Shown in pieces: positions 14,269 to 64,000 of a stretch of DNA of 64,000 bases. Location of the stretch: assembly GCA_937923145.1 (NCBI GenBank), contig CALAJT010000024.1, forward strand, positions 3,563 to 67,562, in the 5' to 3' direction. The stretch is from an uncultured Rubritalea sp. GTDB lineage: Bacteria > Verrucomicrobiota > Verrucomicrobiia > Verrucomicrobiales > Akkermansiaceae. Each line of letters begins with the position of its first letter. Within the stretch, counting starts at the first letter, position 1. The position numbers were made by a program, and so were the translations under genes. The notes beneath the pieces are model-generated. The model made no database searches. It was not told where the DNA came from and worked only from the letters and a program-made list of their open reading frames with translations.

Positions 14269-15660
14269 ATGAAAAGAAAAAACAGAACAATAAAACTAGC
14301 TAGTGCAGTCTCTACGCTTGGGTTAGGCTTAGCATTAGGAGTGTCCACAGCGACAGCTCAGGAAGCAGCATCGATGATTCCTACTAAAAAAGAGAACGTA
14401 ACTCAGCCGGGCAAGTCAAAATTAGCGAAGCCTGTGAAGATCGCTATGGTGAAGGTAGCAGGAGATTTGATCGACCCGATCAATGTTACTTCGGCAAATG
14501 ATGGAAGCGGCAGAATGTTTATATGCGAACGTCAAGGAGTCGTGAAAATACTGAAAGATGGGAAGATCCAGAAGCGTCCATTCCTAGATATTTCGGACAC
14601 AGTAGTGAGCTCATTTTTAGAGCAAGGACTCTATGACATCGAGTTTCACCCTAAATTTAAGACAAATGGTAAGTTCTACGTTCACTATTCTGACATGTGG
14701 TTCAATGGTGATTCATTCATCGTGGAGTACACAGTGGATAAAGAAAAGCCGGATAAGGCAGACATGAAGAGTGCTAGAGTGATCATGCAAATCGATCAAC
14801 CTTACGCGAACCACAATGGTGGTGAGCTAGTATTCGGGCCTGACGGTTATCTCTACATCGGATCTGGTGATGGTGGTTGGGAAGGTGATGTTCTCAATGC
14901 AGGACAAGACCTCAGCACACTTCTCGCTAAGGTGCTAAGAATCGACGTAGACCAATCTACTCCAGACCGTGCTTATGGAATCCCTAAGGACAATCCATTT
15001 GTGACTCCTAAGAGCCAGATGGTTCTCTTCGGTGTGACTGAAGAAGCATTTGCTAAAATTCAGCCAAACGCGAGACCTGAGATCTGGTCTTATGGTATCC
15101 GTAACCCTTGGAAGATGCACTTTGATAAGAAGACCGGTGATCTCTACATCGCTGATGTAGGGCAAAACCACTGGGAAGAAATTAACTTCCAGCCAGCAAA
15201 CTCTAAAGGTGGTGAAAACTACGGATGGAAGTGGATGTGCGGAACTCATCCTTTCCCTCTCAGCAGAGTAAATGCACCTACAGTAGGGGTCCTACCTATC
15301 GGTGAATACACCCATGCTGGAGAAGGAATCTGCGTCACAGGACTCGGTGTTTATCGTGGTTCTAAATACCCATCTCTCGACGGTACATACTTCGTCTCTG
15401 ACTGGGGATCAGGTAAGATCTGGGGAATGCAACACACGGCTGATGGCAAGTGGGCTATGGAAGAACTTCTAGATACAGCTCTCATGCCAAGTGGGTCTGG
15501 TGCTGATGAAGACGGCACTATCTACATGACTACTGCTACAGCTAACTATGGTGGACCAGTGAAGCCAGCAGACAACGTGCGCGGAGCACTATGGATGATG
15601 GTAGAAGCTGATAAAGTTCCTGAAGGGGCTGAGACAATTCCACTCGATGGTAAAAAGTAA
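14269..15660 (+). CDS. Secreted PQQ-dependent sugar dehydrogenase (glucose/sorbosone dehydrogenase beta-propeller family)
   Basis: Sec signal peptide, plus EQGLYDIEFHP, NHNGGELVFGPDGYLYIGSGDGG, YGIRNPW and DVGQNHWEEIN motifs. Confidence 0.9.
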   Translation: MKRKNRTIKLASAVSTLGLGLALGVSTATAQEAASMIPTKKENVTQPGKSKLAKPVKIAMVKVAGDLIDPINVTSANDGSGRMFICERQGVVKILKDGKIQKRPFLDISDTVVSSFLEQGLYDIEFHPKFKTNGKFYVHYSDMWFNGDSFIVEYTVDKEKPDKADMKSARVIMQIDQPYANHNGGELVFGPDGYLYIGSGDGGWEGDVLNAGQDLSTLLAKVLRIDVDQSTPDRAYGIPKDNPFVTPKSQMVLFGVTEEAFAKIQPNARPEIWSYGIRNPWKMHFDKKTGDLYIADVGQNHWEEINFQPANSKGGENYGWKWMCGTHPFPLSRVNAPTVGVLPIGEYTHAGEGICVTGLGVYRGSKYPSLDGTYFVSDWGSGKIWGMQHTADGKWAMEELLDTALMPSGSGADEDGTIYMTTATANYGGPVKPADNVRGALWMMVEADKVPEGAETIPLDGKK

Positions 15661-51579: not shown

Positions 51580-52694
51580 ATGAGTTCAAAGCTCACGTCG
51601 CTACAGAAGCTCTCAAAGGAGGAGAAAACTATACAGCAAATCGCTCAAGAAAATGATATTACTCCAACTCAGGTTAGCGCCTGGAAAAAAGAGCTTGAAG
51701 AACGAATGTGTGAAATATTTGAGCGCAAGAATGCATCAGATAAGCAGCTCAAACATCATGAAAAAAGAGGTGGCCATTTAGAGCGTAAAATTGGTCAACT
51801 CGTCATTGAGAAGGAGTTTCTTGAAAAAAAGTGCGAACAGTTGGGGATCGATCTCACCGAAAGACCATGATCGATACTCAACACCCTAAACTCTCGATTC
51901 GTAAGCAATCAGAAATGCTAGGAGTCAACCGCAATAGACTCAAGCCACGTCAATCCAAACACACAGAAGAAGATCACTCTATCATGAAAAAGCTGGATGA
52001 AATATACATGGAATGCCCATTTTATGGTCAACGAAAACTACACTTAGAGCTCCGAGATCACGGTCTCAAAGTAGGTCGGAATCGTGTCAGAAGACTCATG
52101 AGGATCATGGGTATTGAAGCTCTATTACCTAAGCCAAACACTAGTAAGCCCTGTAAAGTCAGTCACATCTACTCGTATTTACTCCGTAATCGCGCGATCG
52201 AAGAAGTGGATGAAGTTTGGCGTGCGGACATTACCTTCATTCCGATGGAAAAAGGACACGCTTACCTCGTTGCGATCATGGACTGGCATAGCCGAGCTGT
52301 GTTTAGTTGGGAAGTCAGTAACACGATGGATAGAAGCTTCTGTGTCCGCGCTCTGAAGTCCGCAATGGCTCTAACAGGGCGTAAACCAAAGATATTTAAC
52401 ACGGATCAAGGTAGCCAGTTTAGCAGTGTTGAATGGACGACTGAGTTGAGCAATAACGGCATTCAAATCAGCATGGACGACAAAGTACGCTCGATGGATA
52501 ATGCATTCATTGAGCGGCTCTGGCGTAGCATCAAATACGAGAAGCTGCGGCTCTGGGGCTACGATAGTGTCTGATATCTTCGAGTTCTAGTCGATGACTG
52601 GATGGAGTTCTATAGCCACCGAAGGAAACATCAAGGCCTGGTATACATTACTCCTTGGTCAATCTACTCTGATCGGCAACAACAAGCCGCATAG
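51580..52694 (+). pseudogene. Degenerate IS3-family element (orfA/orfB)
   Basis: orfA 51580-51870 with an A-AAA-AAG -1 frameshift signal at 51825-51831. orfB has DDE motifs (WRADITF, TDQGSQF, DNAFIERLW). A premature TGA at 52572-52574 is followed in frame by ...FYSHRRKHQGLVYITPW to a TAG near 52694. The orfA 5' end is truncated and frameshifted (EFKAHVATEALK in another frame). No terminal IRs found. Confidence 0.85.
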
Positions 52695-60370: not shown

Positions 60371-62223
60371 TGTGTGCTATTTTTGGATGGTTTGGCGCAG
60401 ACACTTCAGAAAACCTTCGAGGTATGGCAGCCACCATGCAGCATAGAGGACCTGATGGAGAAGGCTTTCTGCACACTAGTGAAGTAGCCATTGGCATGAC
60501 CAGATTAGCTATAGTAGATTTAGAAAATGGACAGCAACCATTTCACTCTAACGATCAATCAATCTCGGTGGTCTGCAATGGAGAAATATACAACTTCGCA
60601 GAACTTAAAACACAACTCCTAGAACTAGGACACACATTCCAAACAAATTGTGACTGTGAAATCCTACCAGCAGCCTATCAGCAGTGGGGGATAGACTTTC
60701 TCAACAAACTTAATGGGATGTTCGCAATCGCAATCTACGATCATAGCCAAAATCAACTCACCCTAGCACGTGATCGCTTCGGTCAAAAGCCACTCTACTA
60801 TGCATCGCACAATGGAAATATCTACTTCTCCTCAGAGATAAGAGGATTGCACAAAATAGGTATTCCTAAAGCAATCAATCACTCGGCGATACCATCCTAT
60901 CTCTCTCTTAGATATGTTCCAGAACCAGAGACGATGTTCCAAGACATCAAAATATTACCTGTAGGATCGTTCTTAACAATTGAAAATGAGGTAACTATAA
61001 AGTGCAAAAAGTGGTATCAAATTCCTGTTTCGAAAACAGACTACCCAGATGCTACAACTGAACTCCATGACATCACCCGATTAGCGATTCACTCTGCGCT
61101 GATCTCTGATGTTCCCATCGCACTGCATCTTTCCGCAGGTATAGATTCATCAGTCCTTTTAGCTGAGATTAAAAAAACTGACACACCGATCCAATGTATC
61201 ACCGCAGGATTTGGAGCTAAATCTGATGAGGTAAATGAAGCCGCTGCGCTTTGTAAAAAATATACCCTAGCACATACCGTAGTAGAACTCTGCGCAGACG
61301 ATATCCGCTCATTACCTGATGTCATCTCACAGATGGAACTGCCAGTAGGCGATGCCTTAATACTAGCGTTTGATAGGCTCGCAGAGGCTACTGCTGAAGC
61401 AGGGTGCAAGGTTGCTATCGGAGGTGAAGGGATAGACGAAGCATTTGCAGGTTACTCATTTCATAAGTTCATGATGCTTGGAGAGAAATTGGGAAGTGTA
61501 GGGAGAGCTATCGCAGTCAGGGGACTAGCTCTCACACCAGAGTATATCCTGAATAAACTATCCGCATTTCCTGCCAATCTAGGTAAATCTGGAAGGCTTA
61601 AAATTCAAAACTATCTTCATAGCTATAATTATCTAACAGATTACGAAAAAGGAGTGAACCTACGGACTCTATTTAGTCAGTCTGAGATCAACCAACTAGC
61701 AGTAGTGAAGAACAAAAAAATCACACTGCCAGAGCTAACTCTGAGCAAGGGAGATTTACTAGAGAGCCATCTCAAACATCAATTCGAAAGCTGGATGCAA
61801 GACTGGGCGATTATACGCCAAGAGCGAAACACCATGGCGCATTCAGTAGAATATCGTATGCCGTTTCTAGATCATAGGCTTATCGAATTTGCATTTTCAC
61901 TAGAGAATAAGCAGAAGCTAAACGGACGAGCTGGTAAACATATCTGGCGAAAAATGGCTGCGAAATACTATCCAGAAACTCAGCACAAGCGCACCAAGCA
62001 ACCGTTCTTCTTCCCAACAGAAGAGCCTGCCTATTTCAAAGAAATCACGACGTTGCTAAATTCGACTATCGGTTCAGAAAAGTTTCATCAGCGTAGAATG
62101 TTTGATATGGAGCAGCTCAAGCAACTCCGTGAAACTGCTGAAAGAACCAGAGAGTTTCTCCCTATAAAACAACTTCTCTCTATCGCAATCTTAGAACTCT
62201 GGATGCAGGAACACGATTTATAA
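60370..62223 (+). CDS. asnB: Asparagine synthase-like glutamine amidotransferase (polysaccharide-locus type)
   Basis: MCAIFG, HRGPDGEG, RLAIVD, NGEIYN, RDRFGQKPLYY, SAGIDSS, GEGIDEAFAGY and EYRMPFLDH motifs. Confidence 0.92.
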   Translation: MCAIFGWFGADTSENLRGMAATMQHRGPDGEGFLHTSEVAIGMTRLAIVDLENGQQPFHSNDQSISVVCNGEIYNFAELKTQLLELGHTFQTNCDCEILPAAYQQWGIDFLNKLNGMFAIAIYDHSQNQLTLARDRFGQKPLYYASHNGNIYFSSEIRGLHKIGIPKAINHSAIPSYLSLRYVPEPETMFQDIKILPVGSFLTIENEVTIKCKKWYQIPVSKTDYPDATTELHDITRLAIHSALISDVPIALHLSAGIDSSVLLAEIKKTDTPIQCITAGFGAKSDEVNEAAALCKKYTLAHTVVELCADDIRSLPDVISQMELPVGDALILAFDRLAEATAEAGCKVAIGGEGIDEAFAGYSFHKFMMLGEKLGSVGRAIAVRGLALTPEYILNKLSAFPANLGKSGRLKIQNYLHSYNYLTDYEKGVNLRTLFSQSEINQLAVVKNKKITLPELTLSKGDLLESHLKHQFESWMQDWAIIRQERNTMAHSVEYRMPFLDHRLIEFAFSLENKQKLNGRAGKHIWRKMAAKYYPETQHKRTKQPFFFPTEEPAYFKEITTLLNSTIGSEKFHQRRMFDMEQLKQLRETAERTREFLPIKQLLSIAILELWMQEHDL

Positions 62224-62229
62224 GACATA

Positions 62230-62264
62230 AAAAAGCAATTTAGCACTGAGCTAAATTGCTTTTT
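62230..62264. terminator. Bidirectional intrinsic terminator between asnB and the DsbD gene
   Basis: AAAAAGCAATTTAGC-ACTGA-GCTAAATTGCTTTTT forms a perfect 15-bp inverted repeat. Confidence 0.85.
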
Positions 62265-62288
62265 AAAGTGTGTGATTACCAATTGTAT

Positions 62289-64000
62289 CTAGTCAGAATA
62301 GTTGACTGCATATTTTAAGGCTTTGATTGCATCGCCCGAGGTGGGAGTGCCATTCATGAGAACGCCTGGCATTGATAGATCTGATGGGTAGATGATCATT
62401 AGTGGGATGCCTCCTTCTTTAGTTCTCGCTAATTCTTTTTTCTCAGCAAGTGCATCTTCATCTGTTAGATCGAGTTTGATCTTCTCTACATTGTTAGATG
62501 CTACTAGCTGGTTTACTTCATTGCTTGAGAAGATACTCTTCTCAATGGCTATACAAGTTAGTCACCAATCAGCAGTGTAGTCTAGCCAGACTATTCTCCC
62601 TTCCTTACGCGTATTATCTACCATGGTTGGCTCCCAGCCTGTCCACTCATGATCTATGGCTGCGATCTGACTACGCTCGGTATTCATTGCCTGCCATGCG
62701 AGGTGTCCTGCACCTGTCGCTAGGATGATAGTGAGGGCGAATCCGACTACGTATCTGCGAATTTTCGGAGTAAATCTAGGGGACCATGTGCCGTATACGA
62801 ATGCGGCTGTCGCAAAAATAACTAATGACCAGAGCATGAGTATGATTCCTTCTTCACCAGTTTGCTTGATGAATACAGTGAGCAAGAATACGACTGTGGC
62901 TAGCAGCGGGAACGCCATAGACTTTTTAAAGGTGACCATCCAGTTTCCTGGTCTGGGGAGCTTATCGATAAGTTTAGGGAAGAAGGATAGTATGAGATAC
63001 GGGAAGGCGACTCCTAGCCCAAAGATGGTGAAGAGGAATAACGCAACGATTGCTGATTGTTGCAGAGTATAAGTCATCGCGGTAGCTAATAGAGGTGCTC
63101 CACATGGTGTTGCTATAAGAGTAGTAAGAATACCGCTGAAGAAAGAGCCTTGGTAACCTTTTTTCTGCTGTAAATTTCCCCCAGCACTGGTGAGTGAAGT
63201 TCCTACTTCAAATATACCAAAGAGGTTCATGGCGAAAAGTGCGAGTAATATGATCATGCTACCTACGAAGATCGGACTCTTCATCTGAGAACCCCAGGCA
63301 ATAGCATCACCAGTGGAAGCTTTGATCGCTAGGATAGTTCCTGCGAGTATCCACATAGAAACTAGCACCCCGAGTGTGAATACGAGTCCATGCATTTTGA
63401 TTTTCTTAGGATCATTTCCAGCTAGCTGGGCGAATCCCAGTACCTTAACACCTAAGACAGGGAATACGCAGGGCATAAGATTAAGAATCAATCCGCCTCC
63501 AAAAATGAGTGCCATGGCTAGCAAGAATGTCGTCTCTTCTTTCTTACCGGTTACCTGACCGTCTTTGTCCACGAGATTACCATTTTCGTCTACGAATAAT
63601 TGGTCACGGGGAATTACTACTCCAGCATCATTGACCACGTAACCGTCATCGTTAAGACGACTGATCGGAATGGTTATCACTGGGTTGTCAGGGACTAAGG
63701 CGAGACGTTCTTGCTGTGAACTTTCGGATTTTTCATCAACTGCAACTGTTGGACTTTCAGCTTCGGTCATAGCAGGAGAGCCGATAGAGAATAAAACACC
63801 GTGGACTCCATCGATGACTTTGTGGCTTTCAGAAGTGAAAATACCTGTAAGCTTGCTAGGGACTTCGGCGTCTTCTTTAAGTGCGACAGTAAGTTTGTAT
63901 CCACCGTCTATTACGTCCATTTGATGAGCTTTTTCAATATCGATGATTTTAGCATCGGTGATGAATACTGGCTTCTTAAGTTTGCTCAGATCTTCTTTAG
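62289..64000 (-). CDS. dsbD: DsbD/CcdA-family thiol:disulfide interchange protein with in-frame UGA (putative selenocysteine, UxxC), 5' end beyond the window
   Basis: TM domain Cys motifs LMPCVFPVL and ATPCGAPL. The frame is open from 64000 to the TGA at 62564-62562 and resumes for 90 codons to a TAG at 62291-62289: DYTADW-U-LTCIAIEKSIF...KLDLTD...GGIPLMIIYP, a thioredoxin-like DsbD-gamma domain. The family call is strong; Sec decoding is inferred. Confidence 0.85.
62523..62549 (-). promoter_or_regulatory. Candidate bacterial SECIS hairpin immediately 3' of the in-frame UGA
   Basis: mRNA: UGA CUAACUUGUAUA GC CA UUGAGAAGA-GUA-UCUUCUCAA GC. This is a perfect 9-bp stem with a G-first loop starting 26 nt after the UGA. 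Confidence 0.65.

Follow-up and report, generated by a model that had tools for sequence, protein, structure and literature searches.

DsbD is the textbook case of transmembrane electron transfer by sequential disulfide exchange, and UxxC proteins of the thioredoxin fold are the commonest kind of selenoprotein. The CDD model cd02953 is presumably the one for the gamma domain of DsbD. In E. coli DsbD (structures 2FWE, 1UC7 and 1VRS; 4IP1 for the Neisseria protein) an alpha domain with a Cys pair is combined with a DsbD_TM membrane domain holding two Cys and a gamma domain. The DsbD-like gene described here lies at one end of the window, by which we mean the whole 64,000-nucleotide stretch of DNA that was analysed, and its product has the same layout, the gamma active sites corresponding residue for residue (LD-YTADW-U-LTC here, LDLYADW-C-VAC in E. 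coli). It differs from the E. coli protein in the predicted use of selenocysteine (Sec) as the first active-site Cys, and in a much longer N-terminal periplasmic region, with ~370 aa before the first membrane helix. ScsB of Caulobacter and Salmonella is likewise a membrane electron transporter of the DsbD family with an enlarged, non-thioredoxin N-terminal domain, and within the cell envelope it feeds ScsC as well as peroxide reduction by TlpA/PprX (Cho et al., 2012; PMC3322552). One member of the window protein's family has been named 'suppressor for copper-sensitivity B' by JGI, and an ScsB-type envelope function is plausible for the window protein. ScsB is a Cys protein. No ScsC, TlpA or peroxiredoxin gene adjoins the DsbD-like gene in the loci examined, and neither a conserved redox partner nor a sel gene was found next to it in the loci examined for synteny.

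Selenoproteins of this general kind have already been predicted computationally. A 2026 review tabulates a 'thiol:disulfide interchange protein' family with a UxxC motif (representative WP_011366075.1, Geobacter; PMC13188914) and credits it to Kryukov & Gladyshev (2004). The table of the 2008 GOS marine selenoproteome (Trx-like 2, cd02953) has 22 marine Sec sequences and 2,098 Cys homologues, and 18 genes in 14 genomes were assigned to the 'thiol:disulfide interchange protein' family by Peng et al. (2016). In view of the 2026 and 2008 tables, the novelty of such a protein was overrated in the first-pass annotation. What these selenoproteins share with the window protein is UxxC in a thioredoxin-fold disulfide-interchange domain; their published entries name a thioredoxin-like domain only (PF13098 or cd02953), and the match of the window protein to PF13098 is weak and falls below the cut-off (E 0.0031; 18 bits against 27). 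Among the published accounts that we found, none has a full alpha-beta-gamma DsbD, the Verrucomicrobiota/Planctomycetota clade described below or its SECIS, and the planctomycete selenoprotein table (PMC4807772, S9) includes no DsbD. Our literature search met a selenoprotein tied to DsbD, ScsB, CcdA or DipZ only in the TsoB line of the 2026 review. TsoB (rhodanese/DsbD fusion-like, NF045694), which alone among DsbD-related selenoproteins has a curated model, is also the best NCBIfam match of the window protein (161 bits, with the membrane and gamma parts aligned to positions 172-542 of the 572 in the model). Identity with TsoB was rejected, the cut-off being 805 bits and the window protein being without a rhodanese domain; the review moreover gives TsoB as UxxxxU with two Sec, as against UxxC here. 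DsbA-like and DsbG-like selenoproteins and Sec-thioredoxin likewise carry Sec for the N-terminal Cys of CxxC, and were also found through Sec/Cys pairing and a bacterial SECIS (bSECIS); these are small and soluble, whereas the Sec domain of the window protein would be an internal relay of a large polytopic membrane protein.

Gene layout and domain architecture

The features of the gene, all on the minus strand, are as follows.

62565..64000, minus strand: DsbD-like ORF upstream of the TGA, ending with Trp before the TGA; 5' end cut by the window edge
62877..63524, minus strand: DsbD_TM (beta) domain, PF02683, E 3.6e-18, residues 159-374 of the partial translation
63470-63468 (LNLMPCVFP) and 63104-63102 (ATPCGAP), minus strand: Cys codons of DsbD_TM
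62385..62645, minus strand: thioredoxin-like gamma domain spanning the TGA, Thioredoxin_7, E 2e-8, residues 452-538
62562..62564, minus strand: in-frame TGA, very probably read as selenocysteine (U of W-U-L-T-C), from translation and alignment to Cys
62553..62555, minus strand: TGT, second (resolving) Cys of U-x-x-C, from ORF translation
62525..62545, minus strand: SECIS-like hairpin UU-GAGAAG-AGUAU-CUUCUC-AA, from fold and covariation
62544-62526, minus strand: family-wide 7-bp core of the hairpin, with loop 62537-62533 and loop G-U 62536-62535
62292..62561, minus strand: 90 post-TGA codons (LTCIAIEK...GGIPLMIIYP...KALKYAVNYSD), completing the thioredoxin fold
62289..62291, minus strand: TAG, true stop codon, from ORF translation
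62230..62264, minus strand: intrinsic terminator hairpin past the TAG, a 15-bp stem then a T-run

Read across the TGA, the minus strand gives ...RIVWLDYTADW-TGA-LTCIAIEKSIF..., so that the TGA (62564-62562) stands, as first annotated, at the first Cys of a W-C-x-x-C motif with the Cys codon TGT at 62555-62553, and the frame stays open for 90 sense codons up to the TAG and the terminator. The latter sits between the DsbD-like gene and a convergent asparagine synthase gene. Elsewhere in the window, an NCBIfam scan of ten ORFs gave FeoB, PyrD, ArgJ and others.

The Pfam matches of the read-through product are DsbD_TM and Thioredoxin_7, the second of which runs across the TGA. The alpha-domain part lies outside the window but can be seen in a database protein (P0001) that represents the full N-terminal part, is 690 aa long and is 100% identical to the window protein. 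Its precomputed Pfam matches are PF11412 (DsbD_N, the alpha domain) and PF02683, its N-terminus is signal-like (MKSSITKFLAFIGLALLITNASAQE), and the Cys pair of its alpha domain is found in QMCKDDIC. Across 27 homologues no variation is seen at C177 and C299, the two Cys of the membrane domain (LNLMPCVFP and ATPCGAP). The gamma domain matches the solved DsbD-gamma structures 4ip1, 1uc7 and 2fwe (E 1e-4 to 4e-4), and the alignment with these pairs ADW-U-LTC of the window protein with ADW-C-VAC of E. coli, placing the TGA opposite the first active-site Cys of DsbD-gamma. Of the features expected of a DsbD/ScsB protein, DsbD_TM with two Cys, an exported DsbD_N with a Cys pair and a gamma domain were found, the last with U-x-x-C rather than C-x-x-C. 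The NCBIfam DsbD model PRK00293 scored 130 bits, below its curated cut-off of 330; by that cut-off the protein is a distant member of the family rather than a DsbD of the E. coli type.

Conservation of the in-frame TGA and of the domain beyond it

Approximately 158 of 196 related database proteins (38-100% identical) end at the same residue as the window ORF: 150 end at ...TAxW and 8 are one residue-type off at the same spot, while 36 of the 196 are Cys forms. Among the best 120 homologues the ...TAxW terminus occurs in 102. At the DNA level, TGA occupies the position in 9 genome loci, ~65 metagenome loci and 8 loci fetched by protein, TAA or TAG never doing so, and in every family locus checked as DNA the TGA is followed by x-x-Cys and 87-104 open codons. 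The recurrence of TGA at one position in dozens of orthologues, all with the frame continuing, excludes a chance in-frame TGA. Tabulated side by side, TGA is present in more than 80 loci and TGC or TGT stands at the aligned codon in 63 other, more distant homologous loci. Within a 50-sequence alignment the second Cys codon has invariant columns T16 and G17. Purifying selection on the post-TGA domain is as strong as on the part upstream, dN/dS against the two closest relatives being 0.041 and 0.054 downstream of the TGA versus 0.023 and 0.072 upstream.

Loci with the TGA form belong mostly to Verrucomicrobiota, with some from Pirellulaceae/Mariniblastus, and in a phylogenetic tree they make up essentially one clade (56 tips, with 2 Cys tips nested within). 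The nearest relatives of the window are Akkermansiaceae MAGs, in agreement with the verrucomicrobial host proposed from the sequence alone.

A SECIS-like hairpin downstream of the TGA

A 7-bp hairpin starts 18 nt past the UGA, and the consensus produced by RNAalifold is the same hairpin as had been specified by hand. In the 50-sequence alignment 95.4% of cells are paired compared with 85.3% in shuffles, none of 500 shuffles reaching the observed value, and when the partner strand was slid out of register as a control pairing stood at 29-66%. Three pairs covary (33-39, CG 32 and GC 18; 30-42, GC 46 and AU 4; 27-45, UA 25 and CG 15), two of them through changes that are synonymous in each arm of the stem (Glu GAG/GAA with Phe TTC/TTT; Asn AAT/AAC with Ser TCA/TCG). 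Protein constraint explains some of the hairpin's conservation, since the hairpin overlaps the conserved peptide N-E-x-R-V-F-S, but the synonymous double changes in the stem argue against it as the whole cause. Loop G35-U36 is invariant throughout the family alignment. The hairpin is absent from the Cys forms, which form on average 2.6 of the 7 pairs, whereas the TGA forms make 6.68 of 7.

According to the bSECIS model in the 2026 review, the loop has 3-9 nt with G in the first two loop positions, the stem 4-16 bp, the distance from the UGA is 16-37 nt and the energy no higher than -7.5 kcal/mol (PMC13188914). The window hairpin falls within these bounds, with a 5-nt loop (AGUAU), 7-9 bp, a distance of 24 nt and an energy of -9.7 kcal/mol for the hairpin alone. 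Folded alone, 21 of 50 family hairpins reach -7.5 kcal/mol or lower and 29 are weaker; with the whole 57-nt stretch folded, 45 of 50 do so. In two divergent members, L009 and L033, the hairpin is placed differently. Searched against Rfam with E values up to 10 allowed, 62200-62700 matched no SECIS family. Chance-level matches to snoRNA, miRNA and sRNA models, all on the terminator, were the only ones returned.

Weighing recoding against a stop codon

Taken together, these observations make it very probable that the gene encodes a ~781-aa DsbD/ScsB-type reductase in which UGA specifies Sec within the gamma motif W-U-L-T-C, with recoding through the downstream bSECIS hairpin. This Sec reading, which the first-pass annotation had advanced, has gained support from Sec/Cys pairing, the clade-wide TGA, selection downstream of it and the covarying hairpin. 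The lineage, too, uses Sec: Table S2 of Peng et al. (2016) includes Rubritalea marina and two marine Verrucomicrobia single-cell genomes among organisms with selenoproteins.

The alternative that fares best is a genuine or leaky stop served by standard tRNA, under which the product would be a gamma-less DsbD, the downstream piece would be untranslated, read through or re-initiated, and selenium would play no part. This is how gene callers everywhere render the locus, giving a product of 640-740 aa and a leftover ORF of 60-78 aa, and Sec machinery was found neither in the window nor in 60 tRNA-scanned loci nor in 1.7 Mb of SelD-probed loci. Specifically, ARAGORN reported no tRNA, and hence no tRNA-Sec, in the 64-kb window and only two tRNA-Thr genes in the 60 related loci, an NCBIfam scan of ten size-matched window ORFs contained no selA, selB or selD, and tblastn over the 1.7 Mb of related loci gave no SelD match, a weak negative given an approximate E. 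coli SelD query. Among RNA runs, none was found to contain the region. Against a stop, over 38-100% identity the codon is always TGA and never TAA or TAG; it also falls exactly on the catalytic residue, where the outgroups have Cys. Since the downstream piece does not open with a start codon, re-initiation would lose the active-site motif, and the part after the TGA has a dN/dS equal to that upstream. There is also, at SECIS distance, a hairpin whose stem covaries and whose loop has an invariant G-U, and the Cys forms lack it; a DsbD without half its gamma active site would have no known function. We accordingly give a genuine or leaky stop only a slim chance.

A private nonsense mutation or sequencing error that makes the window copy a pseudogene, as a bare in-frame stop in one metagenome-derived window might suggest, is refuted by the comparative data and retains a negligible probability: more than 80 independent loci, drawn from numerous samples and from two phyla, have the same TGA, the domain past it is intact and subject to purifying selection, and the independent Logan assembly of marine-metagenome run X1 covers 62200-62800, including the TGA at 62562-62564, without any difference at a word depth of ~9.7. 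Genome-wide reassignment of UGA to Trp or Gly (genetic codes 4 and 25) is hardly credible either; TGA is rare as a stop, as had been claimed, but a real one, the 48 non-nested ORFs of at least 100 aa in the window ending in TAA (32), TAG (13) or TGA (3, one being the DsbD codon), yet no in-frame TGA occurs in the other 47, of which two have TGA as their stop, and the aligned residue in homologues is Cys rather than Trp or Gly. When the window was scanned for long frames that are bounded by TAA or TAG and hold a single internal TGA close to a redox motif, the DsbD gene was the sole credible case.

Proposed mechanism

The order of parts in the full-length protein is signal peptide, alpha domain with its Cys pair, membrane domain holding two Cys and, at the C-terminus, gamma domain; alpha and gamma would both face the periplasm. 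The UGA at 62564-62562 would be recoded under the direction of the mRNA hairpin at 62544-62526 acting as a bacterial SECIS, which would be bound by SelB carrying Sec-tRNA(Sec), and selenium would thereby be inserted at the gamma active site. By analogy with E. coli DsbD, cytoplasmic thioredoxin would hand electrons to the Cys pair in the membrane, from which they would reach first the U/C pair of gamma, next the Cys pair of alpha and finally periplasmic partners. Sec would take the place of the exposed nucleophilic Cys (Cys461 in E. coli), the position through which transient bonds are made to each of the adjoining domains. At this relay site a selenolate should speed exchange and resist irreversible over-oxidation.

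A further reading, that marine Rubritalea-like Verrucomicrobiota and certain Pirellulaceae have Sec-DsbD as their chief or sole selenoprotein, is one that we regard as unlikely. It is hinted at by Peng et al. (2016), who give exactly one selenoprotein for R. marina. If true, the whole selenocysteine machinery would be retained for a single electron relay in the membrane, and the envelope would depend on selenium supply for its reducing power, a gamma-less 690-aa protein being made without Se. As part of this reading, Sec at the relay position might also lower the redox potential of gamma or make exchange faster, which in oxic seawater could give access to reductions that a Cys-DsbD is unable to drive, for instance in the repair of peroxide or sulfenate in the envelope.

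Annotation and occurrence in marine Verrucomicrobiota

As anticipated, annotation pipelines treat the gene as truncated; an example from Rubritalea halochordaticola is the RefSeq entry WP_346188011.1. At least 150 database clusters are recorded as DsbD without a gamma domain and no NCBIfam model rescues them; the DYTADW-TGA context together with the hairpin GAGNNS-CGUGU-SUUCUC offers a signature for a new model. Sec would be placed at the central relay residue of transmembrane electron transfer, and the marine selenoproteome would gain a membrane-bound envelope function, additions that leave current understanding standing. Cultured R. halochordaticola (GCA_039544995.1) carries the TGA form and R. 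squalenifaciens a Cys version that is 60% identical, and such congeneric Sec and Cys versions therefore allow a clean test of what selenium contributes to the relay. The TGA form is common in marine metagenomes.

Reading frame and architecture

The gene enters the window on the minus strand from its edge at 64000 and runs to ...GRIVWLDYTADW, where a TGA (62564-62562) occupies the position of the first Cys of the W-C-x-x-C motif. On the minus strand beyond it the frame continues as LTCIAIEKSIFSSNEV..., stays open for 90 codons and closes at a TAG (62291-62289). Translation and a hairpin search bore out the layout described in the first-pass annotation, including the terminator behind the TAG, and the region is reproduced exactly in an independent assembly of a marine-metagenome run (X1). 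Features of the gene are as follows.

63470-63468, minus strand: membrane Cys in LNLMPCVFP, invariant in homologues
63104-63102, minus strand: membrane Cys in ATPCGAP, invariant in homologues
62544-62526, minus strand: hairpin U-GAGAAG / AGUAU / CUUCUC-A
62264-62230, minus strand: terminator with a 15-bp stem, 3' of the TAG

The 569-aa partial product, queried against Pfam with C put in at the TGA, matched DsbD_TM (E 3.6e-18) and, across the TGA, Thioredoxin_7 (E 2e-8). Its gamma part resembles solved DsbD-gamma structures, ADW-[TGA]-LTC lying opposite ADW-C-VAC of E. coli. An identical database protein, P0001, supplies the N-terminus beyond the window, comprising a signal-like peptide and DsbD_N (PF11412), whose Cys pair reads QMCKDDIC; it has 690 residues as far as the Trp before the TGA, and the read-through protein would therefore be ~781 aa. 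As predicted from sequence, no station of the DsbD relay is missing from the protein, which has the alpha Cys pair, the two membrane Cys and a U-x-x-C gamma active site (U, selenocysteine, Sec).

TGA is a rare stop in the window, closing 3 of 48 long ORFs (TAA 32, TAG 13). One of the three, at 51831-52574 (plus strand) in an area earlier called IS3 fragments, has a frame open for 39 codons beyond its stop.

Conservation of the TGA codon

Among the best 120 homologues (41-100% identity), 102 end at ...D-Y-T-A-D-W and 17 are longer, with W-C-x-T-C and a complete thioredoxin domain. Combined with a second search seeded with a Rubritalea protein, the total rose to 196, of which 150 stop at that Trp, 36 are Cys forms and eight stop at this site with Thr, Gly or Asn as the last residue (P0130, P0134, P0161, P0167, P0169, P0176, P0178 and P0181). 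One example lacking the Trp reads DFTADT-TGA-VTCKINENSVFS; the locus of P0130 (L175:5029-5335) has 89 codons beyond the TGA and the same type of hairpin (GAGAAC-AGUGU-GUUCUC).

The first-pass annotation had proposed comparing TGA with TGY in relatives. Of 80 genome loci read as DNA, 9 have TGA and 63 have TGC or TGT at this codon; in the other 8 the pattern search did not place the motif. The nine comprise Akkermansiaceae and Verrucomicrobiales MAGs, Pirellulaceae, Mariniblastus and one 4.3-kb contig binned as Vicinamibacteria (Acidobacteriota; L003, CAXMOB010000179.1), whose gene is ~50% identical to the window gene and whose taxonomy may reflect a binning error or horizontal transfer. Scanning metagenome contigs for the exact pattern DYTADW-TGA returned 87 stretches, ~65 of them true family members and the others unrelated genes with a chance match. 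In every family member the TGA is followed by x-x-Cys and 87-104 further codons, and the stop at this position is never TAA or TAG.

A private nonsense mutation with a decayed tail, among close orthologues all carrying Cys, is ruled out by the same TGA in the DNA of dozens of orthologues, with the frame continuing in all of these. Compared with the two closest relatives, dN/dS is as low in the post-TGA segment (0.041 and 0.054) as in the 90 codons before the TGA (0.023 and 0.072).

In a neighbour-joining tree, itself crude, the 56 TGA forms group in a single clade; just 2 Cys forms nest within it, L002 (Verrucomicrobiales MAG) and L004 (Mariniblastus MAG), and the remaining 61 are placed elsewhere. 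The topology suggests a classical Sec/Cys pattern of one origin with occasional reversion, L002 and L004 being candidate Sec-to-Cys reversions.

A SECIS-like hairpin

All typical members carry a hairpin beginning 18 nt after the UGA (consensus N-GAGNNS / CGUGU / SUUCUC-N). RNAalifold on 50 distinct sequences recovered exactly these seven pairs. In a count of pairs, 95.4% of cells are paired vs 85.3% in column shuffles (observed value reached by 0/500), falling to 29-66% when partners were shifted by 1-3 columns. Pair 33-39, unbroken throughout, is C-G in 32 sequences and G-C in the other 18; this switch links the third position of a variable codon with Val GTG/GTC. Pairs 30-42 (G-C to A-U via Glu GAG to GAA and Phe TTC to TTT) and 27-45 (U-A to C-G via Asn AAT/AAC and Ser TCA/TCG) change synonymously on both sides, a pattern that constraint on the protein does not explain. 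Loop positions G35 and U36 are invariant. On average 6.68 of the seven pairs form in TGA forms vs 2.6 in the 63 Cys-form genes.

The window hairpin lies within published bSECIS constraints (5-nt loop with G second, 7-9 bp, 24 nt from the UGA, -9.7 kcal/mol), shares its AGUAU loop variant with an 80%-identical relative from other samples, and matched no Rfam family in a scan of 62200-62700. In two divergent Verrucomicrobiales members the TGA is kept with a different hairpin, in one a 13-bp stem with a GUU loop, beginning ~33 nt downstream (L009, 7090-7160), in the other the short GAACA-GUU-UGUUC (L033, 6982-7050); these lineages may have remodelled the SECIS.

The conserved TGA, Sec/Cys pairing, downstream selection and covarying hairpin together support the original reading of the TGA as Sec in a DsbD-type gamma site, and we consider the window gene very probably a real selenoprotein gene.

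Relation to known selenoproteins

We found no tRNA-Sec, selA, selB or selD in the 64-kb window or the related loci searched, and none of the RNA runs searched contains the region. Selenoproteins are on record in this lineage: Peng et al. (2016, Table S2) give one for Rubritalea marina DSM 17716, four for the Verrucomicrobia single-cell genome AAA164-E04 and three for AAA168-F10.

As a predicted UxxC thioredoxin-fold selenoprotein, the window protein is of a known kind. It falls below the cut-off of the curated DsbD model (130 vs 330), and assignment to TsoB was rejected (161 bits vs a cut-off of 805). The domain of the GOS marine table entry, cd02953, we take to be the DsbD-gamma model. The 119 families of prokaryotic selenoproteins tabulated in a 2026 review include the rhodanese/DsbD fusion TsoB but no explicit DsbD entry (PMC13188914); the 'thiol:disulfide interchange protein' family was counted as 18 genes in 14 genomes (Peng et al., 2016). 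We found no description of a full-length Sec-DsbD in the literature searched, but the protein probably belongs to this catalogued family. The present analysis contributes the full DsbD-type architecture, a large clade of marine Verrucomicrobiota and Planctomycetota, a SECIS with good support, the systematic nature of the misannotation, and a pair of cultured species, one Sec and one Cys, fit for experiments.

Misannotation and cultured representatives

As anticipated for automated pipelines, NCBI annotates TGA-form genes as truncated DsbD. In cultured Rubritalea halochordaticola (L168, GCA_039544995.1, BAABRL010000003.1) the RefSeq product WP_346188011.1 has 697 aa and no gamma domain, while in the gene itself the TGA is followed by the same hairpin and by 88 codons in all. 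Its congeners R. squalenifaciens, R. tangerina and R. spongiae (P0127, P0145, P0165) carry W-C-L-T-C, placing Sec-type and Cys forms within one cultured genus. Right behind the truncated DsbD, annotation software calls a short orphan ORF of 60-78 aa that has no Pfam match, a recognisable artefact usable to find more cases; each of the following is the gamma-domain tail begun at an internal codon.

L170:10173-10397
L172:10119-10346
L173:10014-10250
L168:12179-12361

Proposed function and genomic neighbourhood

In the 1VRS work on E. coli DsbD, the first gamma Cys, Cys461, is reportedly an exposed nucleophile that forms a mixed disulfide with the alpha domain, and the predicted Sec occupies this position. 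A selenolate there would make both exchange steps faster and could avoid irreversible over-oxidation in the oxic envelope; under selenium shortage, termination at the UGA would yield a gamma-less, probably inactive protein. ScsB-type proteins supply envelope peroxiredoxin and isomerase pathways (PMC3322552), and by analogy such a role would be a reasonable model. No redox partner genes are encoded in the neighbourhoods of the window gene and its relatives, where just two genes recur: one that is AmiA-like, upstream, and a convergent asparagine synthase gene, the latter in the window and its close relatives. Elsewhere in the window, an ORF at 14269-15660 (plus strand) weakly matches TIGR02604 (PVC-type heme-binding CxxCH protein N-terminal domain) and a PQQ-dehydrogenase-like model, which fits a Planctomycetes-Verrucomicrobia-Chlamydiae origin.
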